Of a stretch of DNA of 64,000 nucleotides, positions 28,944 through 53,950 are shown piece by piece; the first letter of the stretch is position 1, and the number at the start of each line of letters is the position of its first letter. This stretch comes from an uncultured Bacillota bacterium (GTDB lineage: Bacteria; Bacillota; Clostridia; Peptostreptococcales; Anaerovoracaceae), in assembly GCA_949287095.1 (NCBI GenBank), contig CASEFA010000001.1, forward strand, positions 69,320 through 133,319. Direction: 5' to 3'. Below the pieces are notes generated by a model. The model worked only from the letters and a program-made list of their open reading frames with translations, did not search any database and was not told the DNA's origin. Made by a program: the position numbers and the translations under genes.

Positions 28944-29014
28944 AGAATTGGATGTTGAATTTGCTTGCTTTTTATATCAGCAGAACTTCTTTTTTACTGT
29001 ATTCGGATTTTAAA

Positions 29015-29027: not shown

Positions 29028-29047
29028 TATTATGACCTTGAAAGCCC

Positions 29048-29076
29048 CGCTGAAAGGGGTTATAATGGACGGGAAT
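29048..29076 (+). promoter_or_regulatory. sigma70 promoter TTGAAA-17-TATAAT
   Basis: ccTTGAAAgccccgctgaaaggggtTATAATgg, about 45 nt upstream of ATG 29119. Confidence 0.6.
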
Positions 29077-29118
29077 TCGGGTAACAGGCATATTTTGAAA
29101 TTTGTAAGGAGCACAGAC

Positions 29119-31227: not shown

Positions 31228-31281
31228 TTTTATTATACATTTTAGAAAAACAATCAGGCTGATTTAATCAGGAGGCATTCA

Positions 31282-32499: not shown

Positions 32500-32509
32500 A
32501 GGAGGAAAC

Positions 32510-33622: not shown

Positions 33623-33631
33623 ACCGTAAAC

Positions 33632-33688
33632 AAAAGGCTGCCCGGCCGGCGATGAGTCCAACTGACTTTGCCGGCGGGCAGCCTTGTT
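33632..33688. terminator. bidirectional hairpin between convergent alr and dipeptidase genes
   Basis: AAGGCTGCCCGgCCGGC...GCCGGCGGGCAGCCTT long stem. Confidence 0.65.
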
Positions 33689-33699
33689 AATTCTGACGA

Positions 33700-34647: not shown

Positions 34648-34686
34648 AATAACCTCCTGTGTGCTGCGAATTAATTTTTCACATAC

Positions 34687-34714
34687 ATTATAGCACTAAG
34701 TCTCTTCATGTAAA
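34687..34714 (-). promoter_or_regulatory. sigma70 promoter TTTACA-16-TATAAT
   Basis: Minus strand TTTACAtgaagagacttagtgcTATAAT, upstream of the dipeptidase gene. Confidence 0.55.
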
Positions 34715-34726
34715 GCCGTTTATTAC

Positions 34727-34766
34727 AAAAGCGGCGCCGCCGGAAATTTCCGGCAGTGCGCCGCTT
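34727..34766 (-). terminator. rho-independent terminator after the SNF transporter genes
   Basis: Minus strand AAGCGGCGCACTGCCGGaaatttCCGGCGGCGCCGCTTTT. Confidence 0.75.
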
Positions 34767-34786
34767 AAATGCGCATTCTTTGATTT

Positions 34787-36193: not shown

Positions 36194-36212
36194 TTAAATT
36201 ATCCTTCCTGTT

Positions 36213-41934: not shown

Positions 41935-42098
41935 AAAATATGCCCCTTAACAGCTCCGCCAAACAAATGGAAAAGGCTTATCTGCGGCACATAAGAACCT
42001 CCGCTTATTGCTGCTTCCTTCCGGACCTGACAAGGTTCACGGTGTCTCATTGCGCAGGACCCAGACCAAGCCGGGCGAAGCTGTTAAAGGGCATATTT
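41935..42098 (-). ncRNA. ffs: signal recognition particle RNA (4.5S/scRNA, ffs)
   Basis: Minus strand contains the invariant domain IV motif GTCAGGTCCGGAAGGAAGCAGC. It is closed by a long terminal stem (ATGCCCTTTAACAGC...GCTGTTAAGGGGCAT) and sits in the classical ffs-dnaX-ybaB-recR arrangement. Ends are approximate. Confidence 0.85.
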
Positions 42099-42109
42099 AC
42101 AACGTATTA

Positions 42110-42138
42110 ATTATATTGGTTTTAGCCTGCCGTGTCAA
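42110..42138 (-). promoter_or_regulatory. sigma70 promoter TTGACA-17-TATAAT for ffs
   Basis: Minus strand TTGACAcggcaggctaaaaccaaTATAAT, immediately upstream of the SRP RNA. Confidence 0.7.
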
Positions 42139-42166: not shown

Positions 42167-43090
42167 TTATCTTCCCGTCATGAACCTGAGTTCTTTCTTT
42201 GACGTGTCTATGCAGGTCATCGCTCCGAGAGGAATGTTTATCATCGGATTGTCATGTCCTGACTGAATGTTATATATTACCGGGATATCTTTATCACCTA
42301 TGGCGTCGAGAATAATACGGGTCATGTCGTAGCCCGGCACATCTTCTCTGCAGTCCGTGAACTGGCCGAGGACGATACCTTTAATGTTGTCGAACTTTCC
42401 GGCGTTTCTGAGCTGATATACATGTCTGTCCAGATTGCCTACATGCTCGCCTACTTCTTCGATGAACAGAATCTTACCGTCTGTATCCATATCGTAAGGC
42501 GTTCCCAGGGATGCACAGATGACCGTAAGGTTTCCGCCTGTCATTACGCCTTCGGCTTTTCCTTCTCTCGCTACCTTAAGCTCATGTCCGGCAGGCGCCT
42601 TATAGATGTATTCCGCGTCAGCGTTTATGGCTGCGAAGAATGCCTCTTTCACTTCAGGTGTGAAATTGTCAACGATGTTGGAAGAAACCATCGGGCCGTG
42701 GAAGGTAACCATGTCGCATTTCTGATTGAACAGAAGGTGCAGGCTGGATACGTCGCTGTATCCTACAAAAGGTTTCCTGTTGTCACGGATCACGTCAAGA
42801 TCCAGATAATCGATAATGCGGTTGGCTCCGTCTCCGCCTCTTATGCAGAATATGGCGTCGACGTCTTTGTCCGCAAACATTGAATTCAGGATTTCGCCGC
42901 GGAGAGATTCCTCTCCTGCCATGTATCCGCCCTTTGAGGCGGTAATGTTAGGCGCTTTCTTTACTTTGAAGCCCATCTCCTCGATGGCTTTAACGCACTG
43001 CTCTTCTCTTTCCGCTGTGATTGGTGAGCTGGTGCTTACAAGACCTATAGTAGCGCCTTCCTTTATTTTGTCAGGATATACCATGAACAT
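42167..43090 (-). CDS. S66-family LD-carboxypeptidase (LdcA/MccF-like), copy 1
   Basis: 307 aa. GYSDVSSLH serine-nucleophile motif and SGH near the C-terminus. Confidence 0.8.
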   Translation of the reverse strand: MFMVYPDKIKEGATIGLVSTSSPITAEREEQCVKAIEEMGFKVKKAPNITASKGGYMAGEESLRGEILNSMFADKDVDAIFCIRGGDGANRIIDYLDLDVIRDNRKPFVGYSDVSSLHLLFNQKCDMVTFHGPMVSSNIVDNFTPEVKEAFFAAINADAEYIYKAPAGHELKVAREGKAEGVMTGGNLTVICASLGTPYDMDTDGKILFIEEVGEHVGNLDRHVYQLRNAGKFDNIKGIVLGQFTDCREDVPGYDMTRIILDAIGDKDIPVIYNIQSGHDNPMINIPLGAMTCIDTSKKELRFMTGR

Positions 43091-43102
43091 TCACCTCCGG
43101 TA

Positions 43103-43639
43103 TTAATATCCCCACATGAGGTTTACGATGATTGCCGACATGATAAGGGAGAAAAGGTCTCCTGAAAGTCCTGCCAGCAGGGACTGTCTTGAGTTGGTGA
43201 TTCCTACGGCTCCAAAGTATACCGCAAGTACGTAGAATGTAGTCTCTGTAGATCCCATTGCAACGGATGCGATACGTCCGATCTGGCTCTGTGTTCCGTA
43301 CGTTTCCAGAAGGTCCGCACAGAGTCCCTGAGCGCCGCCTCCGGAGAAGGAACGCATGATTCCCATCGGAAGAACCTCTCCCGGAAGGCCTACCAGACTG
43401 GTAATCGGATCAAGGATTGCCACGATCCAGTCCATGGCTCCCGAAGCTCTGAGCATACCTATGGCGCAGAGCATTGCAACCAGATAAGGTATGATCATTA
43501 CGGATGTTTCGAAACCTTCCTTCGCACCTTCGGTGAAGGAGGAATAAACCGGAACTCTCTTTATTATAGCATAAAATGCTATAAGCATTACTATTACCGG
43601 TATAGCGTATACGGATATTGCATTTAATACTGCTGTCAT
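43103..43639 (-). CDS. spmB: SpmB-like nucleoside-recognition (Gate) domain membrane protein, copy 1
   Basis: 178 aa. EGAKEGFETSVMIIPYLVAMLCAIGMLRASGAMD, closely resembling B. subtilis SpmB as remembered. Confidence 0.75.
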   Translation of the reverse strand: MTAVLNAISVYAIPVIVMLIAFYAIIKRVPVYSSFTEGAKEGFETSVMIIPYLVAMLCAIGMLRASGAMDWIVAILDPITSLVGLPGEVLPMGIMRSFSGGGAQGLCADLLETYGTQSQIGRIASVAMGSTETTFYVLAVYFGAVGITNSRQSLLAGLSGDLFSLIMSAIIVNLMWGY

Positions 43640-43652
43640 TTTCTATACCTCC

Positions 43653-44360
43653 TTAACCTTCAATTGCACCTGCAGTATCGTCTGATGCCGATACCGGCTC
43701 CAGCGGATCGTCGCCGATGTATTCCTCGTTTATGATAAGAGTTCCGGCGGCTCTTTCCTTTTCGATATTGTAATCGTAGGTGAATATCTTAATCTTGTTA
43801 AGAAGCTTGGTCATGATAACACATACTGCAGCGGCGCAGAGAGTGGTCAGAATGGTAGGGCCTACGATTTCTGCGGCGCCTTCAGTCTGAACGGCCGATC
43901 TCATTGCGATGGCTGTAGTAGGCAGAATAGTAATAGATCCCGTGGAAATAGCCATTACCATTGTCTGAGCATCCGTTGCAACATTCTTTGACTTGTTGAG
44001 AGTCTGCAGGTCCTGCATGGCTCTGATTCCAAGAGGAGTGCACGCATTTCCGAGACCCAGAATGCTGGATGCGATGTAGAGAGAAATAGAAGAGTTTGCA
44101 GGATGGCCTTCCGGTATTCCCGGGAACATCCATCTCAGCAGAGGCGCCAATGCCTTACTCATCTTCTCACAAAGTCCGGCTTCTTCCATAACCTTCATAA
44201 GTCCGCAGAAGAATGCCATTGTACCGATAAGTCCGAGAGCGATTTCTACGGCCGAATCTGCAAAAGTGAACAGACTGTCCTGAATCGCTTCCACATTGCC
44301 GGTGATTATTCCGGCAACTACGGCGATGACCACCATGGCCACCCAAATGTAGTTCATCAT
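43653..44360 (-). CDS. spmA: SpmA-like nucleoside-recognition (Gate) domain membrane protein, copy 1
   Basis: 235 aa. MMNYIWVAMVVIAVVAGIITGN...GLIGTMAFFCGLMKVMEEAGL...GHPANS...LGLGNACTPLG. Confidence 0.75.
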   Translation of the reverse strand: MMNYIWVAMVVIAVVAGIITGNVEAIQDSLFTFADSAVEIALGLIGTMAFFCGLMKVMEEAGLCEKMSKALAPLLRWMFPGIPEGHPANSSISLYIASSILGLGNACTPLGIRAMQDLQTLNKSKNVATDAQTMVMAISTGSITILPTTAIAMRSAVQTEGAAEIVGPTILTTLCAAAVCVIMTKLLNKIKIFTYDYNIEKERAAGTLIINEEYIGDDPLEPVSASDDTAGAIEG

Positions 44361-44444
44361 AATTACTTTACCTCCAGTTTGAATAAATTTTTCCCCGTTT
44401 CGGGGAAATTCACGCCAGTAATTATAAAAACAGCCTATTCATAT

Positions 44445-44460
44445 TGCAATTCACGTGCCA
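44445..44460 (-). promoter_or_regulatory. sigma54 -24/-12 promoter
   Basis: Minus strand TGGCACgtgaaTTGCA, about 85 nt upstream of the spmA-like ATG at 44360. Confidence 0.75.
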
Positions 44461-44678
44461 CTACTCAGCTCCTTTCAATAATACTGTTTTTTTCAGTGTC
44501 GCCCGCCGTGTCACACGGCCCTTCGTTCCGATCAAATCCTGTCTGTCACTTCTTCAAATTGCACGATAATATGATTAAATGGGGTTTTATCGGGTGTTTG
44601 CGGAAATTTCATATTATACTGTTATGTTGCCAACACCCGGCTAATTGTGTATCATACACTGAGGAGGATTTAAGACTT

Positions 44679-45317
44679 ATGACCGATAATACCGAAAGAA
44701 TGAATACTGAAGACAGAATAAGATACGTATCCACCAACAAGGCCAAGATTATGTTCTTTATAACGGTAATGATTCTTTTTCTTCTCAGATTCATCATTAC
44801 CCTGCAGATAAAGTTTTACGGCATAGAGGGATACACGGTATACATCATTCCTACTCTCATATACTACGCCCTCATATTCCTTGCCGTTATTATTCTGTTT
44901 TTCTGCTATAAATGCTTCGTCACCACTTATGATGACAAATCCATCACGTATACCAACCACCTGCTGCGGAAATCCCGAACGGTAACGGTGGATGAAATAA
45001 GGTATGCGCTTCTCGACTGGAGAGGCATTCATCTTAAGAGGAGTTCCGCCGAAAACGAGCCTGATGCACTTACTATTCCTTTTTTCAGAGGCGGTATTGT
45101 AAACGCTTTCGATGCGGACAGGTTCTTCAGGATGCTCATAGCCAATGAAAATATCCGGGTAAACAAAACTTTCAAAACTCTCCCGGGATACACGAAAAAA
45201 TGGAAATGGGTTTCCATAATCTACGCACTTCTGGCTATATGCACACTACTCGCCTCTGCAAATTATCTTTATACGGTGATCGTGCTGTTTACCGCAAGCA
45301 GCAATAACCTCATATAG
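44679..45317 (+). CDS. hypothetical membrane protein (2 TM plus cytoplasmic beta-rich, PH-like domain plus C-terminal TM), paralogue 1
   Basis: GAGGAGG precedes ATG 44679. The rest of track ORF 44103-45317 is antisense to spmA and is discarded. Paralogous to 50655-51269. Confidence 0.6.
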   Translation: MTDNTERMNTEDRIRYVSTNKAKIMFFITVMILFLLRFIITLQIKFYGIEGYTVYIIPTLIYYALIFLAVIILFFCYKCFVTTYDDKSITYTNHLLRKSRTVTVDEIRYALLDWRGIHLKRSSAENEPDALTIPFFRGGIVNAFDADRFFRMLIANENIRVNKTFKTLPGYTKKWKWVSIIYALLAICTLLASANYLYTVIVLFTASSNNLI

Positions 45318-45336
45318 CAGCACATCAGGCAGTACG

Positions 45337-45390
45337 AAAAAGCACCGCTTTCCGGCAAGATCATATCCGGATAAAGCGGTGCTTACTTTA
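45337..45390. terminator. bidirectional hairpin terminator
   Basis: AAAAAGCACCGCTTTccgg...ccggATAAAGCGGTGCTT between convergent genes. Confidence 0.7.
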
Positions 45391-45421
45391 TGATGCAGTT
45401 TTTTCTTTCAGCTTATACGTC

Positions 45422-46720
45422 TTACACATCGTTTCTCGCCACGTCTTCGAAAGTTTCCCTCTTAACGGCGATGTAGCTTTCGCCGCCTTTGAGCATAACC
45501 GTTGCAGGCTTTGGCAGACGGTTATAGTTGGAAGCCATGGAGTAGTGATATGCTCCGGCGGTACATACGGCTACCGTATCGTATCTGGTGATGGATTCAG
45601 GGAACATTACGTCCTCCTGGATTATATCTCCCGATTCACAGCATCTTCCTACCAGTGACGCCTTAAAGTCGGCCTTTTCGTTCATCTTGTTCGCGGTAAG
45701 GCAGGTGTAGGCGGCCTTGTAGAGGGCATATCTCGGACTGTCGGTCATTCCTCCGTCAATGGAAACGTAGTTCTTGTATCCCGCTATCTTCTTTACCGTT
45801 CCGACGGTGTAGAGCACCATTCCGGCATCTGCCACTATGGAGCGGCCCGGTTCCATGTGAATCTCCGGCATGTCAAGTCCCAGCCTTGCGCATGTATCCT
45901 TTACGACCTTTGCAACCTGGGAAATCTTTTCGGCAATGTCAAGGTGCGGATCCGATTCCACATAGCGAACTCCGTAACCTCCGCCGAGGTCGAGAACTTT
46001 CGTGACAAATCCGTGCTTCTCCTTCATTTCGGCTATGAACTCAAGCATTACGACGGCGGCTCTCTCGAACACGTCCTCCGCGAATACCTGAGAGCCTACG
46101 TGGCAGTGGAAACCTCTCAGATCCACGTTAGGATAGCCCATGGCGGCAACGGTTATCTCCTCTGCCTGCCCCGTCTCTATGGCGCTGCCGAACTTAGAGT
46201 CAACCTGTCCGGTGGAAATGGCCTCGTAGGTGTGTGGGTCGATTCCCGGAGTTAGCCTTAAAATAATCTTCTGTCTGAAGCCTCTCTTTGCGGCCTCCTT
46301 ATCTACGGCCTTCACTTCTTCGATGTTATCAGCGACAAAGTATCCGATGCCGTTATCCATGGCGTAGGCTATGTCCTCATCTGTCTTATTGTTTGAATGG
46401 AAAAACGCCTTTGACAGATCGTATCCGGCCTTTACCGCAGTATATATCTCTCCCGAGGACACCACGTCTATTCCCATGTCCTCTTCCTTCATTATCTCGT
46501 AGATTCTCTTGAAGCAGTTGGCCTTTGAGGCGTAAAGAGGAGCGGCATCATCGCCGAAGCTTTCCTTCATCGCCTTCTTGTAAAGCCTGCAGTTGGCGCG
46601 GATTCTGTCCTCGTCCATGAGATAGAGAGGCGTTCCGTATTTTTTCGCAAGCTCCACCGTATCCTGTCCCGCAAACAGCAGATGTCCTTCAGGTGATACT
46701 GAAATGTTTTCACAGATCAT
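45422..46720 (-). CDS. lysA: diaminopimelate decarboxylase
   Basis: Start at ATG 46720 (MICENISVSPEGHLLFAG...), preferred because the longer track ORF would overlap dapF. YASKAN PLP-lysine, GGGYGV and CESGD motifs. Confidence 0.9.
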   Translation of the reverse strand: MICENISVSPEGHLLFAGQDTVELAKKYGTPLYLMDEDRIRANCRLYKKAMKESFGDDAAPLYASKANCFKRIYEIMKEEDMGIDVVSSGEIYTAVKAGYDLSKAFFHSNNKTDEDIAYAMDNGIGYFVADNIEEVKAVDKEAAKRGFRQKIILRLTPGIDPHTYEAISTGQVDSKFGSAIETGQAEEITVAAMGYPNVDLRGFHCHVGSQVFAEDVFERAAVVMLEFIAEMKEKHGFVTKVLDLGGGYGVRYVESDPHLDIAEKISQVAKVVKDTCARLGLDMPEIHMEPGRSIVADAGMVLYTVGTVKKIAGYKNYVSIDGGMTDSPRYALYKAAYTCLTANKMNEKADFKASLVGRCCESGDIIQEDVMFPESITRYDTVAVCTAGAYHYSMASNYNRLPKPATVMLKGGESYIAVKRETFEDVARNDV

Positions 46721-46751
46721 TTTTTTACCTTTCCTTTCACATAAAACATAT

Positions 46752-47591
46752 TTACAGGCTGAAGTCCTCAGCGACGGCTTCACCCTTTGCAACGACATCG
46801 GCAGGTCCCGAGAGAAAGATATCTCTGACCCGTTCTCCTTCAGACGCAACGTCAATTACGAGGCGTCCTCCTTCCATATCGACGGCAACATTTTTCCCGG
46901 AAACGACGCCCTTCATGGTCAGAACTGCTGCAACGGCTCCTGTTCCCGTTCCGCATGCAAAGGTAAAATCCTCCACGCCTCTTTCAAAGGTTCGCTCGAA
47001 AAGGATTCCATCTTCCTCCAGGTCGTAAAAATTTACGTTGGCGCCTTTTGGATAGCCTTCATAAGCTCTGAGGGCTCTTGCGGCAGCGTAAAGTCCCTCC
47101 TTAGGGTACCGCCTTAATCCCTTCCATTCTACCACACAATGGGGGATTCCGGGATCTCCCAGCTCGACATAAGAGCATATGTACGTTTTTTCATCGGCAG
47201 TCAGCTTCTCATCTATACGCACCTTCGTCGGTTCGTTGAGCCTTATCCGATACTCGCTTTCCGATAATCTTTCGCCAATAACGAGCCCTGCGGTAGTTTC
47301 CACTCTCTGGATTTCACCTGCCAGACCGTTTTCAAATCCGTACCTGCATATGCACCTGGCTCCGTTTCCGCACATCTCCCCCATGGAGCCGTCCGAATTG
47401 AAAAAGAGCATCCGAAAATCACCGGTTACTTCGGCTCTTTCCACCGCCATAAAGCCATCGGCTCCTATGGAAAATCTCCTGTGACAAAGGGTTCTCGCTA
47501 AATCGGAAAGCCGGTTAAGCGGAATGTTTTCGTCTATATTATTTATTATGATGAAGTCGTTTCCGGCTCCGTTCATTTTCCAAAATTTCAT
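46752..47591 (-). CDS. dapF: diaminopimelate epimerase
   Basis: 279 aa. MNGAGNDFIIINN, catalytic MCGNGARC and ACGTGTGA. Confidence 0.9.
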   Translation of the reverse strand: MKFWKMNGAGNDFIIINNIDENIPLNRLSDLARTLCHRRFSIGADGFMAVERAEVTGDFRMLFFNSDGSMGEMCGNGARCICRYGFENGLAGEIQRVETTAGLVIGERLSESEYRIRLNEPTKVRIDEKLTADEKTYICSYVELGDPGIPHCVVEWKGLRRYPKEGLYAAARALRAYEGYPKGANVNFYDLEEDGILFERTFERGVEDFTFACGTGTGAVAAVLTMKGVVSGKNVAVDMEGGRLVIDVASEGERVRDIFLSGPADVVAKGEAVAEDFSL

Positions 47592-47601
47592 ATCTATATA
47601 T

Positions 47602-48003
47602 CTATACGCTTCGCATTTCGTCAGCCCGCTTCTTAAGCTGGGAAACAGTCATTTCCTCACCTACAAGGAGCATGTTCTTCGCGTTCTTATATTCAAAACC
47701 TATTTTTATCACCGTAACGTAAGGTTCATTCATTACCTTACCCTGACGGGCCTTCTTCTTGCCGCTGGAGCTGGCTTTAGAAAATGACAGGCCTGTAATA
47801 TCATCCTTCGGTACCATCAGCTCCGACTCGCAGCACGGACACTTGAAATACACGCTGTTGTTGCCCAGAAGCTTCCACTCTTCGCGGTAAAGCCACTTCG
47901 GTTCTTTATTCTGACAAAAGGGACATTCCCCTATATCTTTGTCTGCAAATCTCTGATATATATCGTATACGGCATCTTCTTTTCTCGTGTATTCTTCCGC
48001 CAT
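47602..48003 (-). CDS. hypothetical zinc-ribbon protein
   Basis: 133 aa. CPFCQ...22 residues...CPCCES four-Cys ribbon, then a Lys-rich linker and a small beta-rich C-terminal domain. 10 nt upstream of dapF. Confidence 0.55.
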   Translation of the reverse strand: MAEEYTRKEDAVYDIYQRFADKDIGECPFCQNKEPKWLYREEWKLLGNNSVYFKCPCCESELMVPKDDITGLSFSKASSSGKKKARQGKVMNEPYVTVIKIGFEYKNAKNMLLVGEEMTVSQLKKRADEMRSV

Positions 48004-48024
48004 CCTTATCTCCTGTTTAAATAC

Positions 48025-48046
48025 GGGGCAGTACGCATACTGCCCC
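48025..48046 (-). terminator. hairpin after LD-carboxypeptidase copy 2
   Basis: GGGGCAGTA-cgca-TACTGCCCC 9-bp stem. Weak U tract. Confidence 0.45.
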
Positions 48047-48059
48047 TAAATGAATAAAG

Positions 48060-48980
48060 CTATCTTTCAACCTTGAAGGTGATTTTTCCCGTAGCGGTAT
48101 CCATAGTGCATACTGCACCTAAAGGAAGCGTCATCATAGGCTTGCTGTGACCTGACTGAACATTATACATTACAGGTATGTCGATACCCTCAAGTATATC
48201 CTTTATGTCTGCATACACATCATACTCAGGCAGCTTCTCGTTTTCCACTTCTGTGAACTGTCCGAGCAGAATTCCGCTGCACTTTGCAAGCTTGCCGGAA
48301 TTTCTCAGGTGGTACATCCACTTCTCGATCTTTGACAGCGGCTCGCATACCTCTTCGACGAAGAGGATTCTTCCTTCTGTATCCAGGTCGTAAGGAGTTC
48401 CCACACTGGCGGAAAGAAGAGAAAGATTTCCGCCTGTGAGTATTCCTTCTGCCTTTCCTTCCTTCAGAACTTTCACGTCAAAGCCTGCAGGGTTCTTGAA
48501 TTCGAAATCTCCGTCTGCGTTTATTGCCGCAAAGAGAGACTCTGCAGTCTCATCGTCAAAATCGTTGAGGATATTGGATGAAACCATAGGTCCATGGAAC
48601 GTTACCAGGCCGCAGTTCTGGTTTATTCCCAGATGGATGTTGGTAACGTCGCTGTAGCCTACGAAGATCTTAGGATTGTTTCTGATTACATCGTAATCGA
48701 GGTATTCCATAATTCTGCTGCTTCCGTCGCCGCCTCTCACGCAGAACACAGCCTTAACCTCAGGGTCTGCGAACATTTTGTTTATCCACTCGCCTCTGGT
48801 TTTGCCGGTTCCGGCCATGAAGCCGCCGTAGTTTTCCTCGAGATTATCAGCAGCCTTTACCTTGTATCCGAGATCCTCCATCTTCTTTATGAGAGCAGGG
48901 GTCTTGCCCTCATCTACAGGAGAGCTCGGGCATATGATACCTATGGTATCGCCTTTGTTTAATTTTTCAGGATATCTCAT
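48060..48980 (-). CDS. S66-family LD-carboxypeptidase, copy 2
   Basis: 306 aa. GYSDVTNIH and SGH motifs. Collinear with 42167-43090; roughly half the residues look identical by eye. Confidence 0.8.
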   Translation of the reverse strand: MRYPEKLNKGDTIGIICPSSPVDEGKTPALIKKMEDLGYKVKAADNLEENYGGFMAGTGKTRGEWINKMFADPEVKAVFCVRGGDGSSRIMEYLDYDVIRNNPKIFVGYSDVTNIHLGINQNCGLVTFHGPMVSSNILNDFDDETAESLFAAINADGDFEFKNPAGFDVKVLKEGKAEGILTGGNLSLLSASVGTPYDLDTEGRILFVEEVCEPLSKIEKWMYHLRNSGKLAKCSGILLGQFTEVENEKLPEYDVYADIKDILEGIDIPVMYNVQSGHSKPMMTLPLGAVCTMDTATGKITFKVER

Positions 48981-49008
48981 TTTAGTTTACCTTCTTTCAG
49001 ACAAAATC

Positions 49009-49557
49009 CTAGAATCCGTATCCCCAGAGAAGGTTTACGATTACGCAGGATGCAATAAGGGAAGCCAGGTCGCCGAGAAGGCCTGCCGCTACGGAATGTC
49101 TGGAGTTGGAAACGCCTACAGATCCGAAGTATACGGCAAGGATGTAGAATGTGGTCTCGGTGGAGCCCATTGCAACGGATGCGATACGTCCGATCTGGCT
49201 CTGAGTTCCGTAAGTGGTAACCAGCTCGGTCATCATACCTTCAGCACCGCCGCCGGAGAAGGATCTCATTACCGCGAAAGGAAGAACCTCTCCAGGACAT
49301 CCGATAATGCTAGTTATAGGGTCTATCAGGTTACAAAATGCGTCCATTGCGCCGGATGCTCTCAGCATACCGATAGCGCAGAGCATTGCAACCAGATAAG
49401 GAATAATCATTACTGCTGTGGAGAATCCGTCTTTTGCTCCCGTTGTAAATACGGAGTAAATAGGTACTCTCTTTGTAAGTGCGTAACCTACCACAATGAA
49501 GATTACCACAGGTATGGCCCATGTGGATATTGCGTTAAATACGTCCTGAACTGACAT
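49009..49557 (-). CDS. spmB: SpmB-like membrane protein, copy 2
   Basis: 182 aa. TGAKDGFSTAVMIIPYLVAMLCAIGMLRASGAMD. Confidence 0.75.
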   Translation of the reverse strand: MSVQDVFNAISTWAIPVVIFIVVGYALTKRVPIYSVFTTGAKDGFSTAVMIIPYLVAMLCAIGMLRASGAMDAFCNLIDPITSIIGCPGEVLPFAVMRSFSGGGAEGMMTELVTTYGTQSQIGRIASVAMGSTETTFYILAVYFGSVGVSNSRHSVAAGLLGDLASLIASCVIVNLLWGYGF

Positions 49558-49572
49558 TATATTAGCCCTCCT

Positions 49573-50286
49573 TTACGCTTCTTTGCTTCCGAAATCGGTC
49601 TTCAGCTTGTAACCTTCAGGAAGAACTATAGGGTCGTCTCCTATGTAGTCTTCGTTTACCTCTAAGGTGCCTGCTGCGATTTCTCTCTCGATTACGTTCT
49701 CAAGCTTCCATCTCTTTGTTCTCTGGAAGAGGAGAGAGAAGCCTACGCCTGTTACAGTGGAAATAGTCGTAGCTATGATAACAGGTACAACGATTTCAGC
49801 TGCGCCATCTGCCTGGATGGAAGCACGGATGCTTATTACAGTGGATGGAAGCAGAGTGATGGACGTTGTGGAAATAGCCATGAGCATGCACTGAGCGTTA
49901 GTTGCGATGTTCTTCGTCTTGTTGAGAGTCTGAAGCTCCTGCATGGTCTTAAGTCCGAAAGGTGTTGCAGCATTACCGATTCCCAGGATGTTGGCTGCGA
50001 AGTAAAGAGCCATTATGGAGTTGGCAGGGTGATCAGCCGGAACATCAGGGAAGAGCAGTCTCATAACAGGGTAGATTGCCTTGCCCAGCTTATCGCAGAG
50101 GCCGGATTCCTCCATGAGCTTCATCAGTCCGCAGAAGAATGCCATGGTACCGATGAGTCCGAGAGCGATGTCAACGCCGGACTGTGCGAAGTCAAAAATG
50201 TTCTGAAGTACGGCATCCATAGTGCCCGTGATGCCGCCGGCAACCACGCCTATGAGCATGAATGCCGCGAAGAGATAGTTCATCAT
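49573..50286 (-). CDS. spmA: SpmA-like membrane protein, copy 2
   Basis: AAGGAGGAAATTCTAATT precedes ATGATG at 50286. The 38 extra codons in the track ORF would run through the sigma54 promoter's 5' UTR and are discarded. Confidence 0.75.
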   Translation of the reverse strand: MMNYLFAAFMLIGVVAGGITGTMDAVLQNIFDFAQSGVDIALGLIGTMAFFCGLMKLMEESGLCDKLGKAIYPVMRLLFPDVPADHPANSIMALYFAANILGIGNAATPFGLKTMQELQTLNKTKNIATNAQCMLMAISTTSITLLPSTVISIRASIQADGAAEIVVPVIIATTISTVTGVGFSLLFQRTKRWKLENVIEREIAAGTLEVNEDYIGDDPIVLPEGYKLKTDFGSKEA

Positions 50287-50395
50287 AATTAGAATTTCCT
50301 CCTTCTTTGGTGAAGTTATGCATAATTGCATGATACATGTATCCCGTTCCGGCTGTAAGCTTCCCATGGTTTCGCCGGAACACACGGGGTAGAAT

Positions 50396-50411
50396 TGCAA
50401 TTAGTGTGCCA
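50396..50411 (-). promoter_or_regulatory. sigma54 -24/-12 promoter
   Basis: Minus strand TGGCACactaaTTGCA, about 110 nt upstream of ATG 50286. Confidence 0.75.
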
Positions 50412-50654
50412 AGAAATATTGTGATGAAATTGTGGTAATTTCGGGGTTTATATGTGGACATAGGACGTATATCGCCAAAATGTGTCCTGTTTTCAGGAGG
50501 CGTATTCCTGATTTTAGGACTATACTTCCCGGTGCACCTGTCCGTAACCTCTATTCCCGCCCCTTTTTCACCAAATTAAAGGTTATATGAAGGCATGATT
50601 TTTGCTATAATATATCCTACGGTAATTCATATTTTTTACGAGGTGACAATACAC

Positions 50655-51269
50655 ATGAAAATGCGCAAAATAGAATACAACTATTCCAGTGCCTTCAAGC
50701 AGCTTCTGCTGGCCGTGATAGCTCTCTACGTTCTCCTTTACTATCTGGTAGTAGTGGAGATAAAGGTTTTCGATATTAAGGAATATGCGGACAGCATACT
50801 TTTCTTCCGCTCGACCATCGTGTACCTGGTTATCTTTGCGGTGCTGGGATGTCTGTTCTTCGCCCACAGGTTCTGCTACAGCATATATACCCCTGATGAG
50901 CTGACATTCTACAACCGTCTGCTTTTCCGACAGAAAACGCTGGACTTTTCCAGAGTGAAGCTTGCAGTCTTTGATACGTTCGGAGTGAAGTTCTACGATA
51001 AGGAAGTGTCTTTTCCCATCACCGAAAAGCCCTTCTTTACGCTTCCTTTCTACAGGGGTGGCTTTATAGACCCGGTGCAGATAGACAAGCTGCACCATTT
51101 CCTGCAAGACAGCAAAAAAATACCCGTAGTCAAAAACTACAAGGTACTTTTGGGATACGGCAAGAGCTGGAGACTGCTCTACGCGTTCTACATATTCTTC
51201 ACCATATGCTTCATCATAGCCGGCGTAACTCCGCTGACTGCGGTAATCGTGCTGTTTTTAAACCACTAG
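50655..51269 (+). CDS. hypothetical membrane protein, paralogue 2 of 44679-45317
   Basis: GAGGTGA precedes ATG 50655. Same architecture and shared C-terminal blocks (L/TxPFxRGG...D..F/L..L, ...LPGY/LLGYxKxWK/R... final TM). Confidence 0.6.
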   Translation: MKMRKIEYNYSSAFKQLLLAVIALYVLLYYLVVVEIKVFDIKEYADSILFFRSTIVYLVIFAVLGCLFFAHRFCYSIYTPDELTFYNRLLFRQKTLDFSRVKLAVFDTFGVKFYDKEVSFPITEKPFFTLPFYRGGFIDPVQIDKLHHFLQDSKKIPVVKNYKVLLGYGKSWRLLYAFYIFFTICFIIAGVTPLTAVIVLFLNH

Positions 51270-51270: not shown

Positions 51271-51528
51271 CTAGGTTTCGGAATTTCCGCCGTCTCCGGC
51301 GGTTTCACCGGTTTTACCGGCTTTGTCCGATTCGCCCGGCTCCTGTGATTTCTCTGAGTTTTCCAGAGCTTCACGGATCCGCTGCTCCTTTTCCATCTTT
51401 TTCTTCTGCTGTTCCTTGAGACTGTCCATCATGCTCATTCCGGGACGCCTGAGGATGTAGATGAAGCAGAATATGAGGAGTATCACTCCTATTACGGACT
51501 TTACCGATATATCGAGATTGTCAAACAT
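51271..51528 (-). CDS. hypothetical small membrane protein with charged tail
   Basis: 85 aa. One TM helix (VIGVILLIFCFIYIL), then a Lys/Glu-rich and Gly/Glu/Thr tail. Confidence 0.4.
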   Translation of the reverse strand: MFDNLDISVKSVIGVILLIFCFIYILRRPGMSMMDSLKEQQKKKMEKEQRIREALENSEKSQEPGESDKAGKTGETAGDGGNSET

Positions 51529-51604: not shown

Positions 51605-52087
51605 TTGAATAAGCATTTTTCCATCGTAAACAGGCGCAGCGTCATCTACGTTACTATAGGTATGCTGCTTCTCATAGCGCTCCTTGGAGTATGTCTTTCC
51701 TTCGCCCTCAAAGGCAGCAAGCTCTGGTTCATAGGAGTCGTAATATTCGGCGGGCTGCTGCTCTTCGGAGTGCTCATAGCACGTTCAGTTCTGGATGCCG
51801 GAATCGACGTAATAAGGGGAACTGTCATTCTCCCGGACATCAAACACCCGGAAAGGGGCAAAGTTCCCGCTTTTCACGTGGCTGACCTTGAAGATGTCGG
51901 CCTCTTCACCCTTGACGGTAAAGAGCTTGATCCTGCAGCGGATAAGCTTGCAGGGGCCAAAGTGGTCTTCTCCCTCAAGGACGGAGACAGTAAAGAATAC
52001 TTTCCCCTCTCCATTACGAAAAAGCAGTTTGACAGGCTTAGGCGCGGAATGCTCCTCATGGCCTCCGAAGCCGATGACAACTTCTAA
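51605..52087 (+). CDS. hypothetical membrane protein (2 TM plus soluble domain)
   Basis: AGGAGG 6 nt before a TTG start. 160 aa. Architecture is reminiscent of the two paralogues at 44679 and 50655. Confidence 0.5.
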   Translation: MNKHFSIVNRRSVIYVTIGMLLLIALLGVCLSFALKGSKLWFIGVVIFGGLLLFGVLIARSVLDAGIDVIRGTVILPDIKHPERGKVPAFHVADLEDVGLFTLDGKELDPAADKLAGAKVVFSLKDGDSKEYFPLSITKKQFDRLRRGMLLMASEADDNF

Positions 52088-52096: not shown

Positions 52097-53950
52097 TCAG
52101 AACTTTATGCCGTATTTTTTAAGCTTGTCGTAAAATACGCTCTTTGACATATCCAGTTCCTCCATAGCCTTGTGCTTGTCCCCTTGATACTTCAGCAGAG
52201 CGGTTTCGAGCACCCTCGCCTCCTCCATGGCGAGGTGCTCTTTCATGGTGACCGGCTCTTTTTGGCGTCCTATTCTGAGATGCTCTATGTAGATTATGTT
52301 AGAATCGCATATGGTCACGGCCCGCTCGATGACGTTTTCGAGCTCTCTTACGTTTCCAGGCCAGTCATATGACAAAAGCTTTCTGAGCGCTCCTCCGGAA
52401 AACTGCTTCATTTCCATTCCGTAAGTTTCGCATATTCTCTTCATCAGCTTTGTTATGAGTATGTAGAGGTCCGATTTTCTGTCCCTTATAGGCGGTATCT
52501 CTATGGGAAATACGTTTATCCTGTAAAAGAGATCCTGCCTGAACCTTCCCGCCGCTACCTCCTCTTCCAGATTTCTGTTCGTCGCGGCGATTACCCTGAC
52601 GTCAATTTTTACAGGCTTTGATGAACCTACCCTGTATATTATCTTGTCCTGCAGGACGTGCAGCAGCTTTACCTGAATATCCATGGGGATATCGCCTATT
52701 TCGTCCAGGAATATGGTTCCCTTGTCGGCGGCCTCGAAAAATCCGATCTTGCCTTCCGCCCTGGCTCCGGTAAACGCGCCTCCAACGTAGCCGAAAAGCT
52801 CGCTCTCGAACAAACTGGGTGCTATGGCGTTGCAGTTCACCTCTATAAAAGGGGCTCCCGGCGTACCTGCATTATGTATGTCCCTTGCCAGCATTGATTT
52901 TCCGGTCCCGCTTTCACCTGTGATTATGACGTTGAATTTACTCCTTGAGGCCTTATAGGCCATGTACTTCACCTCACGGATCTGGCTGCTTACTCCGGCA
53001 AAATTCTCGAAGGGTTCCTCCGGAAAGTCCCCCGTATGCTCCACTTCGTTTTCCGACGCCTTCTGTTCCAGCTGATGTATGATCTCATTTCTATCGCTTA
53101 AGAGCCGTTCCAGGTTCTCGGCAGCCTCCAGTATGAGGTACACCCCGTTTTCCGGACATTCACCCATGCCGTGACACGGAACTACGCTGCATATGAAGGG
53201 TCTCTTATTTATTTCGTATATTCTTTCAAGAAAGCCGTCGGATCTTCCGTCCAGTACAGCAAAAAGCTCTGAGGCGACGGCTGAATCGTCAAACACGTCA
53301 AAGTAGTTTCTTCCGGTAACTTCTATCCTGGAGTACCCGGCTTCCTTCTCCATGTACGGCTTTCCTCTCAGAAGGCCGCCCGCATCCTCGTTCCTGACGC
53401 TGTATCCCCTCGCCTGAAAGAACTTTATCTCCCCTGTCGCTCCGTCTATTACCACCATATTTCCCACGGCTGAGAAATAGCCCATCCTGTACTTTTTATC
53501 GTTTACCGAAATGAGTGTCTCATGCTTTACAGTATCCACGGAAACAAAGATCCGAAATCCGTAGTAGACCGCTTCCACCGTCATAGGAGTGGAAAGCTGA
53601 TGCTCCCGCATCGCCTTATATATCGGTCTTACCTTTTCGTTCTTATATACTCCCATGGCTATTATGACGTCGCCTTCCCTGATCTCGCCGTCTTTTATGT
53701 TCAGCATCTTAAGATCCTCTGTGGAAAGGTTCCCGTCGTCTTCACCCATTTTGCTGTCCGCTATTATTACGATATCACCGTCTTCTATTTTCCCCGCAGG
53801 ATGAGACTCTCCCGCGCTTATGGAAATTCCGGTAATCTCCTCCGCGCGTCGGTTGCACATCCTGATTATTCCGTCTTTGTCTAAAAGGATAACCCCCATA
53901 TTCAGGCTATCCATAAGGCGCTGCACCTCATAACCACAGTTTTTATTCAA
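52097..53950 (-). CDS. sigma54-dependent activator (PAS-like N-terminus plus unknown domain, AAA+, Fis-type HTH)
   Basis: 617 aa from a TTG start preceded by GGGAG. GESGTGKS, GGAFTGA, IFLDEIG, and C-terminal KHKAMEELDMSKSVFYDKLKKYGI. Confidence 0.85.
   Translation of the reverse strand: MNKNCGYEVQRLMDSLNMGVILLDKDGIIRMCNRRAEEITGISISAGESHPAGKIEDGDIVIIADSKMGEDDGNLSTEDLKMLNIKDGEIREGDVIIAMGVYKNEKVRPIYKAMREHQLSTPMTVEAVYYGFRIFVSVDTVKHETLISVNDKKYRMGYFSAVGNMVVIDGATGEIKFFQARGYSVRNEDAGGLLRGKPYMEKEAGYSRIEVTGRNYFDVFDDSAVASELFAVLDGRSDGFLERIYEINKRPFICSVVPCHGMGECPENGVYLILEAAENLERLLSDRNEIIHQLEQKASENEVEHTGDFPEEPFENFAGVSSQIREVKYMAYKASRSKFNVIITGESGTGKSMLARDIHNAGTPGAPFIEVNCNAIAPSLFESELFGYVGGAFTGARAEGKIGFFEAADKGTIFLDEIGDIPMDIQVKLLHVLQDKIIYRVGSSKPVKIDVRVIAATNRNLEEEVAAGRFRQDLFYRINVFPIEIPPIRDRKSDLYILITKLMKRICETYGMEMKQFSGGALRKLLSYDWPGNVRELENVIERAVTICDSNIIYIEHLRIGRQKEPVTMKEHLAMEEARVLETALLKYQGDKHKAMEELDMSKSVFYDKLKKYGIKF

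Follow-up and report, generated by a model that had tools for sequence, protein, structure and literature searches.

SpmA/SpmB-type membrane proteins have, to our knowledge, gone without an assigned function for 30 years, and in the dacB-spmA-spmB string of B. subtilis they act in spore maturation. Characterised LdcA enzymes act on tetrapeptide, and enzymes of this type serve recycling in Gram-negatives. On the uptake side, the Bacillus permease for free stem peptides has been described as unidentified (PMC2954226). The 64,000-nucleotide stretch of DNA analysed here (the window) instead pairs spmAB with S66, in two modules. Both lie on the minus strand and run spmA-like, spmB-like and S66 LD-carboxypeptidase, each with a divergent membrane-protein gene, and an ORF check placed all of these genes where the preliminary description had put them (Table 1). 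We read this chicken-gut anaerobe locus as a system for the inducible uptake and breakdown of peptidoglycan stem peptides, comprising two related modules under separate control, and give this reading, drawn from sequence, a probability of roughly 60%; the cargo and the direction of transport are proposed from gene neighbourhood, by guilt by association. The whole locus is part of a larger D-amino-acid peptidase island; neither this adjoining island nor either sigma-54 activator gene was in the preliminary description, and both were now found.

Table 1 Features of the spmAB-S66 locus and the adjoining peptidase island, in window coordinates.
Feature	Position	Strand	Basis or description
S58 peptidase	27029-28072	-	M55-S58 operon
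M55 D-aminopeptidase	28092-28889	-	M55-S58 operon
Sigma-54 promoter of M55-S58 operon, TGGCATatttttTGCT	28928-28943	-	-24/-12 search
Candidate type-1 enhancer of M55-S58 operon	29015-29030	.	motif match
Type-1 sigma-54 activator EBPb	29032-31227	+	Pfam Sigma54_activat
M20 amidohydrolase	31282-32499	+	Pfam/NCBIfam
Alanine racemase	32489-33622	+	Pfam/NCBIfam
M19 dipeptidase	33700-34647	-	Pfam/NCBIfam
S66_1, LD-carboxypeptidase family, module 1	42167-43090	-	Pfam Peptidase_S66 + S66C; motifs GYSD, EE, SGH
SpmB-like Gate-domain membrane protein, module 1	43103-43639	-	Pfam Gate 54.6 bits
SpmA-like Gate-domain membrane protein, module 1	43653-44360	-	Pfam Gate 35 bits vs cut-off 29.6; conserved C-terminal tail
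Hairpin in module-1 leader, TTTCCCCGAAACGGGGAAA	44390-44408	-	fold/hairpin scan
Sigma-54 promoter, module 1, TGGCACgtgaaTTGCA	44445-44460	-	exact -24/-12 consensus
Candidate type-1 enhancer site, ATATGATTAAATGGGG	44569-44584	+	109-124 bp 5' of module-1 promoter
MP1, divergent membrane protein	~44679-45317	+	small clade-specific family
Intrinsic terminator after lysA	45336-45384	-	long GC-rich hairpin then UUUUU, -26 kcal/mol, z = -3.0
lysA, diaminopimelate decarboxylase	45422-46720	-	NCBIfam TIGR01048, 408.7 bits vs cut-off 297.9
dapF, diaminopimelate epimerase	46752-47591	-	NCBIfam TIGR00652, 204.8 bits vs cut-off 114.65
Zinc-ribbon protein, znr	47602-48003	-	motif CPFC...CPCC
Intercistronic hairpin, S66_2/zinc-ribbon gene	48025-48046	-	9-bp GC-rich stem, z = -2.5, no U tract
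S66_2, LD-carboxypeptidase family, module 2	48060-48980	-	Pfam S66 + S66C; triad Ser110, Glu209, His278
SpmB-like protein, module 2	49009-49557	-	Pfam Gate 52.3 bits
SpmA-like protein, module 2	49573-50286	-	Pfam Gate 48.3 bits
Sigma-54 promoter, module 2, TGGCACactaaTTGCA	50396-50411	-	exact -24/-12 consensus; conserved in type-2 loci
Candidate type-2 enhancer, two TCCT-N6-AGGA palindromes 21 bp apart	50485-50519	.	74-108 bp 5' of promoter
MP2, divergent membrane protein	50655-51269	+	AlphaFold model pLDDT 88
Small membrane-protein gene, 85 aa	51271-51528	-	between MP2 and type-2 activator
Small membrane-protein gene, 160 aa	51605-52087	+	between MP2 and type-2 activator
Type-2 sigma-54 activator (PAS, AAA+ with GAFTGA, HTH_8)	52097-53950	-	Pfam Sigma54_activat 213 bits

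For comparison, 80 loci from GTDB species genomes were found with an SpmB profile and annotated by phmmer (31 from Firmicutes, 49 from other phyla). S66 lay directly 3' of spmA-spmB in 28 of the 31 Firmicutes loci, and the same order was present in four Cetobacterium loci. Marinimicrobia-like loci carried S66 5' of spmAB, immediately adjacent in L048 and L049 and at a distance of about 3 kb in L044; the string S13-S66-spmAB was found in three loci of this group, with NamZ upstream in one. Five Gemmatimonadota loci contained spmA-spmB-mpl-X-S66, in which the Mur ligase is Mpl (446 bits against an equivalog cut-off of 389), and an AmiA-like amidase or an M14 carboxypeptidase was found beside spmB in other clades. 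The spmAB-S66 linkage, on which the preliminary description had staked its hypothesis, thus extends beyond this genome, and the recurrence of peptidoglycan enzymes next to spmAB in independent lineages supports the stem-peptide reading; about 31 of the 49 other-phylum loci, with no recognised peptidoglycan gene near spmAB, count against it. Within the 31 Firmicutes loci, co-occurring genes encoded the membrane protein (23), LysA (21), DapF (13), M19 (13), M20 (13), alanine racemase (10), M15 (10) and M55 (7), the loci being rich in M15 D-Ala-D-Ala dipeptidase, M19, M20, M55, alanine racemase, S11 and beta-lactamase-fold hydrolases.

In Pfam searches, each of the four Spm-like proteins scored above the gathering threshold of Gate (PF07670), and both S66 proteins matched Peptidase_S66 together with S66C (E-values 1e-32 to 1e-38), in line with the families first named for them. 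The true start of the module-2 SpmA-like protein is ATGATG, as opposed to the longer frame in the ORF list. SpmA and SpmB are small, at ~410 residues together. As the predicted SpmB structure had a pLDDT of 45, support for a transporter fold is confined to the Pfam Gate match. Between the modules, the paralogues share 71% (SpmB), 56% (SpmA), 52% (S66) and 29% (membrane protein) identity. An earlier estimate of roughly half the residues, attributed to an old duplication, holds as to identity (29-71%) and age, but not as to a local duplication in place: with two old clades and different activators, modules 1 and 2 are, as judged from their sequences, two old lineages (58% identity).

Both module promoters match the -24/-12 consensus exactly, 84 nt (module 1) and 109 nt (module 2) from the spmA start codon, in agreement with the sigma-54 type first proposed. 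With at most one mismatch allowed, four such sites occur in the whole window, each just 5' of a gene start, and one activator was assigned per site, with unequal support. The element was present 5' of spmA in 19 Firmicutes loci among those examined; the type-1 relatives L007 and L008 have it; it was seen in none of the other-phylum loci, except for an off-consensus regex match in L058. The module-1 leader hairpin was not conserved across other loci, and its role is thus uncertain.

The tandem TCCT-N6-AGGA site of module 2 is unique in the window (0 expected), and a further 15 Firmicutes loci have it 5' of spmA, against a background of 6 per 780 kb. Activator matches were obtained in 16 Firmicutes loci, and in 13 of them, all type-2, the type-2 activator was the best query (447-981 bits). 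This pairs module 2 with the PAS-type activator, which would bind the tandem palindromes. The type-1 enhancer motif is A/T-rich and in part derived from sites then recovered with it. It matches the window just twice, against 0.04 expected, and its second match is 5' of the M55 sigma-54 promoter. L007 and L008 carry similar sites at -85 to -106, and their type-1 modules are flanked by EBPb orthologues (675-783 bits). Module 1 most likely answers to EBPb via ATAAGATTTAATGGG, jointly with the M55-S58 operon, and each module is accordingly assigned a putative activator and upstream site of its own.

These promoters bear on whether the pairs could be genuine sporulation genes, serving to mature the spore cortex and dehydrate the core while S66 trims cortex peptides. 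Close relatives are indeed annotated as spore maturation proteins (those of module-1 SpmB above 70% identity as spore maturation protein B), the type-2 locus of a related organism adjoins spoIIGA-sigE-sigG, and in four loci genes for S11 DD-carboxypeptidases are found close to spmAB. We nevertheless consider this highly improbable, since the promoters are of the sigma-54 type with dedicated activators and not of the sigma-E type, S66, LysA and DapF are cytoplasmic enzymes, and the spmAB pair also occurs in Fusobacteriota, Gemmatimonadota, Marinimicrobia and Rhodothermales, for which we know of no endospore formation.

MP1, preceded by a sigma-70-like promoter (TTGCCA-17-TATCAT, 44627-44655), gave no match in Pfam. 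The AlphaFold model of MP2 comprises two N-terminal TM helices, a beta-sandwich with a helix and a C-terminal helical hairpin. The "2-TM, PH-like" label given earlier is thereby right about the N-terminal helices but misses the hairpin, and its PH-like part is weakly favoured: the top Foldseek matches were Spt16/Pob3/SSRP1 PH-like domains (probability 0.95, E 0.08), with nothing at 1e-3 or better. Among 1.84 billion proteins, just 61 representatives of the MP2 family are known. Pfam searches with the 85-aa and 160-aa membrane proteins were likewise without match; relatives of their genes occupy the corresponding membrane-protein/activator neighbourhood in L014, L019, L021 and L028.

The Ser-Glu-His triad is invariant among 32 spmAB-linked S66 copies. 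S66_1 has no hydrophobic N-terminal signal, and the S66 proteins are without signal peptide; in related contigs the S66_1 start is annotated two codons further downstream. Alignment to the LdcA structures 5z01, 1zl0 and 6uuk gave a single colinear stretch, whereas alignment to MccF structures gave two, with ~21 interdomain residues of Bacillus anthracis MccF missing. The architecture thus says LdcA-type, as had been supposed, rather than MccF-type, and from it we infer the substrate. Two results count against this: both proteins miss the NCBIfam LdcA equivalog cut-off of 378 (138-149 bits), and their best PDB E-values (1e-36) go to MccF-named proteins. An MccF-type function in immunity or detoxification, with S66 hydrolysing aminoacyl-nucleotide antibiotics and the Gate proteins moving a nucleotide-like compound, would account for those E-values and suit the Pfam Gate name, which refers to nucleoside recognition. 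It is scarcely credible given the missing MccF residues, the conserved neighbours (lysA, dapF, D-Ala-D-Ala dipeptidase, alanine racemase and Mpl) and the finding of no microcin genes in the annotated loci.

The zinc-ribbon gene, dapF and lysA had been described correctly in identity and position, but as genes between the modules rather than as what they appear to be, the conserved distal part of the module-2 string. Of the 26 loci with enough sequence, 22 have one of the three immediately 3' of S66 and in the same orientation, in varying gene order, which lends support to the proposed muropeptide-to-lysine route; znr, itself without a Pfam or NCBIfam match, stands beside lysA or dapF in an equivalent downstream string in five other loci. 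The hairpin between S66_2 and znr has no U tract and was not reported by the terminator scan, so read-through is predicted to be likely; the terminator behind lysA, in contrast, is a strong one. Counting against the preferred explanation, a weak internal sigma-70-like promoter may lie within S66_2, and dapF and lysA could be ordinary biosynthetic genes of the organism. The latter would fit an alternative in which peptides from turnover of the cell's own wall are recycled, rather than foreign peptidoglycan scavenged, and dapF-lysA are housekeeping genes of lysine/DAP biosynthesis. LysA and DapF do score as ordinary equivalogs, LdcA-type enzymes act in Gram-negative recycling, and in Gemmatimonadota spmAB adjoins Mpl, which returns the tripeptide to synthesis instead of degrading it. 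Own-wall recycling nonetheless seems unlikely to us: the Firmicutes loci carry the degradative M15, M19, M55, alanine racemase and M20 genes and no Mpl, the link of lysA or dapF to S66 persists despite rearrangements, and no lysine riboswitch (L-box) or other Rfam element was found 5' of dapF-lysA. Furthermore, when clostridia use sigma-54 together with a dedicated activator, it is typically for inducible catabolism (PMC6615313).

In the stem-peptide reading, an enhancer-binding protein would sense a cell-wall-derived signal, bind the upstream sites and activate the sigma-54 promoter. The SpmA-like and SpmB-like products would form a two-part Gate-domain permease importing DAP-containing stem peptides, e.g. 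L-Ala-gamma-D-Glu-mDAP-D-Ala, from which a cytoplasmic S66 would split off the terminal D-Ala at the L,D bond. The module-2 string runs on into the zinc-ribbon gene, dapF and lysA, and DAP freed by further peptidases would be epimerised and decarboxylated to lysine. Judging from family names, M55, S58, M20, M19 and alanine racemase would process the remaining fragments, joined in relatives by M15 D-Ala-D-Ala dipeptidase; in 10-13 other loci, type-2 modules likewise have members of the M20, alanine racemase and M19 families as neighbours. Neither a gamma-D-Glu-DAP endopeptidase (YkfC or MpaA type) nor an L-Ala-D/L-Glu epimerase was found among the genes scanned, and the DAP-freeing step therefore falls to unassigned peptidases.

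An alternative is a smaller D-amino-acid cargo (mDAP-D-Ala, D-Ala-D-Ala, free DAP or another L,D-dipeptide), with S66 acting on such a compound. Were it mDAP-D-Ala, S66 alone would free DAP for DapF and LysA, and an endopeptidase would be superfluous. The small size of the SpmA/SpmB pair and the predominance of dipeptidases and aminopeptidases (M15, M19, M55) among the neighbours would suit this. We hold it to be doubtful, because the tripeptide substrate of the Gemmatimonadota Mpl and the amidase, NamZ and S13 associations in other phyla point to a tri- or tetrapeptide, as does the use of the tetrapeptide by characterised LdcA enzymes. With stem peptides as the probable cargo, the locus would represent a variant of peptidoglycan-peptide recycling, through which the function of SpmAB becomes testable.

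Both modules outlined in the preliminary description, each comprising minus-strand spmA-like, spmB-like and S66 peptidase genes and, divergently on the plus strand, a gene encoding a small membrane protein (MP), were recovered in the ORF list and the Pfam scan, as were the zinc-ribbon gene (znr), dapF and lysA between them; numerals on protein names refer to the module. The organism, an uncultured member of the Bacillota, was sampled from chicken faeces. The MAG GCA_019113145.1 encodes proteins identical to those of the window, and a cluster member carries the name Candidatus Avanaerovorax faecigallinarum. For the SpmB-like proteins, the closest relatives (>70% identity) belong to Anaerovoracaceae and allied amino-acid fermenters, e.g. 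Aminicella, Aminipila, Emergencia and Senimuribacter. Identity between the paralogues, previously estimated at roughly half, was found to be 52% for S66, 56% for SpmA, 71% for SpmB and 29% for the membrane protein.

Features of the window considered in this analysis (window coordinates)
Feature	Position	Strand	Annotation
BKACE-family gene	5731-6561		
PALP enzyme gene	11562-12875		Beside the third activator gene
Third activator gene	12891-14984	minus	KDD_N-type N-terminal domain (Pfam)
Sigma-54 promoter	15160-15175	plus	Exact; divergent from third activator gene
Transporter gene	15230-16756		NhaC/Na_H_antiporter family
D-amino-acid peptidase island	27029-37613		M55, S58, EBPb, M20 amidohydrolase (TIGR01891 subfamily), alanine racemase, M19 dipeptidase, two SNF-family transporters
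Sigma-54 promoter	28928-28943		Drives M55 D-aminopeptidase and S58 peptidase
Type-1 activator (EBPb)	29032-31227		Sigma54_activat, 230 bits
SRP RNA gene	41967-42138		Rfam RF00169, 73 bits
Module 1: spmA-like, spmB-like, S66	44360 to 42167	minus	ORF list, Pfam
3' end of module-1 spmA	43653-43730		Conserved C-terminal tail
Module-1 leader hairpin	44390-44408		GC-rich
Zinc-ribbon gene (znr)	47602-48003		
Hairpin between S66_2 and znr	48025-48046		9 bp, U-less
Module 2: spmA-like, spmB-like, S66	50286 to 48060	minus	ORF list, Pfam
3' end of module-2 spmA	49573-49660		Conserved C-terminal tail
Module-2 leader hairpin	50346-50381		GC-rich
Tandem palindromes	50485-50519		TCCT-N6-AGGA, two copies
Small membrane protein gene	51271-51528		
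Small membrane protein gene	51605-52087		
Type-2 activator	52097-53950	minus	PAS, AAA+ Sigma54_activat 213 bits with GAFTGA, AAA_lid_14, HTH_8

All four Spm-like proteins scored above the Pfam gathering threshold for the Gate domain (PF07670), and each module encodes them as an adjacent pair of small membrane proteins, with A preceding B. Their relatives carry the NCBI and JGI names spore maturation protein or SpmB; the NCBIfam SpmA/B models gave no match to the window proteins, for which the YjiG model alone matched, weakly, and no PDB sequence was matched by SpmA or SpmB in single-sequence or profile searches. An AlphaFold model of SpmB built from a 14-sequence alignment reached a pLDDT of 45, too low for use. 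In the sigma-54-linked Firmicutes clade, SpmA of both types defined below ends in a conserved tail, E-x-E-IAAGTLEINEDYIGDDPIVLPEGY, which may be a docking or regulatory segment; the Cetobacterium and Marinimicrobia SpmA proteins lack it. MP matched no model in Pfam or NCBIfam, and its family has only 61 representatives in 1.84 billion proteins. In the confident AlphaFold model, MP starts with two TM helices, continues as a seven-strand sandwich that has a C-terminal helix, and ends in a helical hairpin; the best matches of this fold in the PDB were PH-like domains, none of them significant. MP could be an accessory protein or a sensor.

S66_1 and S66_2 have the two-domain architecture PF02016 + PF17676, far over the gathering thresholds (E 1e-32 to 1e-38). 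The GYSD serine, EE glutamate and SGH histidine, which we take to be the catalytic triad on the basis of LdcA structures, were invariant in 32 of 32 aligned spmAB-linked S66 proteins. An MccF-type identity had been raised as a possibility for these enzymes, and the microcin C immunity peptidases of this type indeed share the fold and the Ser-His-Glu triad with them and gave the strongest PDB sequence scores, the E-values being slightly better for MccF-named Firmicutes proteins than for LdcA structures. The alignments themselves point to LdcA: S66_2 is colinear with E. coli LdcA (5z01), Pseudomonas PA5198 (1zl0) and 6uuk in one stretch with zero net length difference, whereas the alignments to MccF structures fall into two stretches with approximately 21 interdomain residues missing (against 3sr3, query residues 146–173 face chain residues 153–201, making the query about 21 residues shorter). 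In MccF, an extended interdomain loop holds the nucleotide. The comparison thus favours an LdcA-like architecture for both enzymes, which does not in itself prove specificity, and the genomic context, one of cell-wall peptide metabolism, decides in favour of cell-wall peptides. As they reached 138 and 149 bits against the 378-bit cut-off of the NCBIfam LdcA equivalog NF008424, the two proteins are members of the S66 family and not certified equivalogs of enterobacterial LdcA. LysA and DapF both scored above their NCBIfam equivalog cut-offs.

To survey the gene linkage, GTDB species genomes were scanned with an SpmB profile, and the best 80 loci were kept and annotated by phmmer, first with the window proteins and subsequently with extra queries. 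The 31 Firmicutes loci among these derive from Anaerovoracaceae, Sedimentibacter, Tissierellia and unnamed MAGs. The spmAB-S66 linkage proved conserved outside this genome, with S66 directly 3' of spmA-spmB in 28 of the 31 loci (nominal gaps −38 to 80 bp). The divergent membrane protein was found in 23 loci, LysA in 21 and DapF in 13, while 16 had a match to a sigma-54 enhancer-binding activator (EBP); in 13 of the latter, all type-2, the same EBP was the top match (447–981 bits). Of the 26 loci whose sequence extends far enough downstream, 22 have lysA, dapF or znr directly after S66 and on the same strand, in orders including lysA-dapF, dapF-lysA, lysA alone and znr-dapF-lysA. The retention of the linkage despite this variable order speaks for selection and against mere inherited synteny.

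Within module 2, one hairpin separates S66_2 from znr, the next intergenic gaps in znr-dapF-lysA are 10 and 28 bp, and lysA is followed by a strong hairpin and U-tract terminator; neither a lysine riboswitch nor any other Rfam element was found in the gene string by the Rfam scan. The U-less hairpin, short gaps, terminator and lack of a riboswitch, together with the synteny, make a six-gene sigma-54 operon likely, and a weak internal sigma-70-like site inside S66_2 is conceivable.

A neighbour-joining tree from concatenated SpmA, SpmB and S66 sequences split into two clades, with module 2 in the main one (type 2) and module 1 grouping with the loci L007 and L008 (type 1) at 68–69% identity. 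Module 2 is 98% identical to L021, a locus with a single module, in which EBP, a 160-aa gene, an 85-aa gene and MP are followed divergently by spmA-spmB-S66-znr-dapF-lysA; modules 1 and 2 are only 58% identical. The modules represent two lineages and not a local duplication. Anaerovoracaceae bacterium 42-11 appears to carry a type-1 locus (L007) as well as a type-2 locus, so the pair is maintained beyond this genome. The activators flanking L007 and L008 are orthologues of EBPb (675–783 bits) and not of the type-2 activator, and in L008, S58 and M55 peptidase genes come after the module. Small proteins also recur in type-2 loci, namely the zinc-ribbon protein beside dapF or lysA and the two small membrane proteins between the MP and activator genes. 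In a related Anaerovoracaceae organism, a type-2 locus is directly followed by spoIIGA, sigE and sigG (L089/L090, 12759–15269), which shows that at least some carriers keep sporulation genes.

The sigma-54 promoters of both modules were verified as exact TGGCAC-N5-TTGCW elements (16/16 positions), situated 84 nt (module 1) and 109 nt (module 2) upstream of the start codons, and a −24/−12 element precedes spmA in 19 Firmicutes loci. Four sigma-54-type promoters were found in the window, all just 5' of gene starts, and sigma-54 is clearly in routine use by the organism; rpoN was not identified among the annotated window genes. The type-2 and type-1 activator genes had been overlooked in the preliminary description, and with the third activator gene one activator can be assigned to each of the four promoters, with unequal support. 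For module 2, two TCCT-N6-AGGA palindromes 21 bp apart lie 74–108 bp 5' of the promoter. This tandem arrangement is unique in the window, is also found 5' of spmA in 15 other Firmicutes loci, and has a background of 6 occurrences per 780 kb in control loci; module 1 does not have it. A different 16-mer, ATAAGATTTAATGGGA / ATATGATTAAATGGGG, has exactly two copies in the window (0.04 expected), located 109–124 bp 5' of the module-1 promoter and 72–87 bp 5' of the promoter of the M55-S58 operon; the candidate type-1 activator site can also be written ATAAGATTTAATGGG. In L007 and L008, promoters next to the orthologous activators have similar sites, at −85 to −106. As the motif is A/T-rich and partly derived from the same sites, the assignment is a probable one: EBPb probably acts through the 16-mer on both module 1 and the M55-S58 operon. 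A single enhancer site common to both modules was also considered, and their upstream regions yielded no convincing shared motif, the tandem palindrome being missing from module 1; this leads to a model with two activators.

The exact sigma-54 promoter at 15160 was evaluated as a further part of the module system and was found to belong to a separate activator and transporter pair, with a PALP enzyme gene in the same neighbourhood. For the divergent MP genes of the window no convincing sigma-54 promoter was seen, and sigma-70-like elements fit better. In L007 (9046) and L008 (9083), a minus-strand −24/−12-like element, TGGTAC/TGGTAT-N5-TTGCA, faces the divergent MP-activator genes and suggests autoregulation in these loci; the window MP genes are without such an element. 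A leader riboswitch or attenuator was likewise not upheld, as Rfam gave the SRP RNA alone in the window and the related leaders, of 37–150 nt, were unrelated in sequence. The leader hairpins of the two modules, the first followed by a weak U-rich stretch, have unremarkable fold z-scores of −1.5 and are not conserved in other loci. The SRP RNA gene lies directly downstream of module 1 and is preceded by a perfect sigma-70 promoter (TTGACA-17-TATAAT), which is embedded in the hairpin after S66_1.

Clostridial sigma-54 amino-acid regulons, e.g. that of PrdR, resemble this arrangement in having an AAA+ activator with GAFTGA and HTH, upstream palindromes and a catabolic operon. Among NCBIfam models, PrdR gave the type-2 activator its best match, below cut-off; the sensor domain and the binding motif of the window activators differ from those of PrdR-type regulons. 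A published reconstruction of 39 activator groups makes no mention of carboxypeptidase, peptidoglycan or lysine targets (PMC6615313), and the genes of the spmAB-S66 system are not mentioned in the sigma-54 regulon papers and supplement consulted.

The enzyme families of the wider island carry annotations for action on bonds characteristic of stem peptides (D-Ala, D-Ala-D-Ala and L,D). Such genes also accompany spmAB elsewhere: of the 31 Firmicutes loci, M19 and M20 are each found in 13, Alr and M15 in 10 each, and M55 in 7; 6 loci have a beta-lactamase-fold serine hydrolase and 4 an S11 DD-carboxypeptidase. The type-2 locus of Emergencia timonensis combines EBP-M55, Alr-M20, M19, MP and spmA-spmB-S66-lysA-dapF-M15 (M15 being a D-Ala-D-Ala dipeptidase), with additional sigma-54 promoters between the M20-Alr and M19 genes. 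A Pfam scan of approximately 35 window and locus proteins revealed neither the YkfB epimerase nor the YkfC endopeptidase, and the M20 amidohydrolase, M19 dipeptidase and S58 peptidase could substitute for these steps. No enzyme among the genes scanned was assigned to gamma-D-Glu-DAP cleavage, for which analogy alone suggests the M20 N-acyl-amino-acid amidohydrolase as a candidate. Elsewhere in the window is a gene of the BKACE family, to which the 3-keto-5-aminohexanoate cleavage enzyme of lysine fermentation belongs; the gene hints that the organism may ferment lysine.

The observed gene content, the promoters and activators, and the conservation of both sites and linkage are compatible with a model of stem-peptide uptake and catabolism, which on this genomic evidence we consider rather probable (roughly 0.6). 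The SpmA/SpmB pair would import DAP-type stem peptides, from which the cytoplasmic S66 enzyme would take off the D-Ala at the end, while DAP, D-Glu and Ala would be released by further peptidases of the island. DapF and LysA would convert LL- or meso-DAP to lysine, and D-Ala would be converted by alanine racemase. Walls containing LL-DAP are known in gut Actinobacteria (table quoted in PMC11382707), which makes a catabolic role available to DapF. Comparative genomics thereby supports the earlier proposal of an SpmAB-based stem-peptide salvage system, with four amendments: the modules represent two old lineages, each has its own predicted activator and upstream site, znr-dapF-lysA forms the conserved end of the module-2 gene string, and the locus is part of a wider D-amino-acid peptidase island.

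E. coli (LdcA, Mpl, MpaA) and B. subtilis (dpp, ykfABCD) are known to recycle or catabolise stem peptides. The B. subtilis dppA-E and ykfABCD genes, thought to break down imported stem peptides, encode an M55 D-aminopeptidase (DppA) and a cytoplasmic S66 LD-carboxypeptidase (YkfA), families also present here, together with a peptide transporter (PMC2954226, PMC3305447). Transport is assigned there to the Dpp/YkfD ABC system or an "unidentified permease", the term used for the free stem-peptide permease of Bacillus (PMC2954226), whereas in the window an SpmA/SpmB-type Gate pair would fill that position. The window locus further differs in adding dapF-lysA, sigma-54 promoters and dedicated activators. 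Gram-negative recycling (AmpG or Opp-MppA, LdcA, Mpl, MpaA) shares with the model the cytoplasmic LdcA-type trimming of tetrapeptides after import, and a further likeness is the clustering of spmAB with Mpl and S66 in Gemmatimonadota. In contrast, the Firmicutes loci are without AmpG, Opp and Mpl, are predicted to be regulated by sigma-54, and appear catabolic in outcome (DAP to lysine, D-Ala to L-Ala) and not directed at wall re-use.

SpmA and SpmB have counted as conserved "spore maturation" proteins since the 1990s. By domain and gene order, the B. subtilis dacB-spmA-spmB genes resemble the window in having a two-gene Gate pair, arranged in the same way and linked to a gene for a peptidoglycan carboxypeptidase. 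The B. subtilis partner is an extracytoplasmic DD-carboxypeptidase encoded upstream and under a sporulation promoter, whereas that of the window is a cytoplasmic LD-carboxypeptidase encoded downstream and under a sigma-54 promoter. No dacB was found upstream of the window spmAB pairs, both of which are preceded by sigma-54 promoters and activator sites. The biochemical role of SpmA/SpmB is still called unknown (bioRxiv 10.1101/2022.02.25.481979), and the function of YjiG elusive (PMC13311989). The E. coli yjiH-yjiG-iadA genes likewise pair two small membrane-protein genes (YjiG being of the Gate family) with an unusual-bond peptidase, an isoaspartyl dipeptidase of a family other than S66. YjiG and SpmB2 are distant relatives (29% identity over 86 residues, E 2e-9); YjiH was rejected as an SpmA relative, as BLASTP revealed no similarity to SpmA2. 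In literature coverage largely without subscription journals, no report linking SpmAB or the COG names to peptidoglycan peptides or recycling was found.

Cell-wall genes also accompany spmAB in other phyla. Cetobacterium has spmA-spmB-S66, and five Gemmatimonadota loci (L051, L052, L053, L065, L086) encode spmA-spmB, a Mur ligase, a 545-aa protein without a Pfam match and S66. The ligase passed the Mpl equivalog cut-off of 388.7 bits (446 and 439 bits) and did not reach that of MurC; Mpl and LdcA form the classic pair for tripeptide recycling. Three Marinimicrobia-like loci (L044, L048, L049) contain an S13 DD-peptidase, S66 and spmA-spmB, one with S66 approximately 3 kb from spmA; NagB is near in all three, and in L049 the exo-muramidase NamZ and a secreted GH18 are encoded upstream. 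In four Neomarinimicrobiota loci (L054, L056, L062, L063), an AmiA-like MurNAc-L-Ala amidase follows spmB by about 1 kb in three, and six loci from Rhodothermales and allied groups (L067, L069, L073, L080, L082, L083) have an M14 carboxypeptidase-like gene near spmB, within approximately 70 bp in three. As no recognised cell-wall gene was seen near spmAB in approximately 31 of the 49 non-Firmicutes loci, the association is frequent and not universal.

It is tempting, if still speculative, to view SpmA/SpmB-type Gate pairs as a widespread and previously unrecognised family of stem-peptide permeases, serving scavenging in gut fermenters, Mpl/LdcA recycling in Gemmatimonadota and necromass use in Marinimicrobia. 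If so, the spore-maturation phenotype of B. subtilis spmAB would reflect the movement of cortex-derived peptides. The occurrence of SpmAB-type pairs beside LdcA, Mpl, NamZ, amidase and DAP-converting genes, here and in at least four other lineages, provides a concrete hypothesis, testable by complementation, that they are carriers of cell-wall peptides, and two new predicted activator/binding-site pairs are offered for clostridial sigma-54 regulons. Through such a sigma-54-controlled route, gut amino-acid fermenters could turn the walls of other bacteria into lysine and alanine, which would be of relevance to the turnover of NOD1/NOD2-active muropeptides in the gut.
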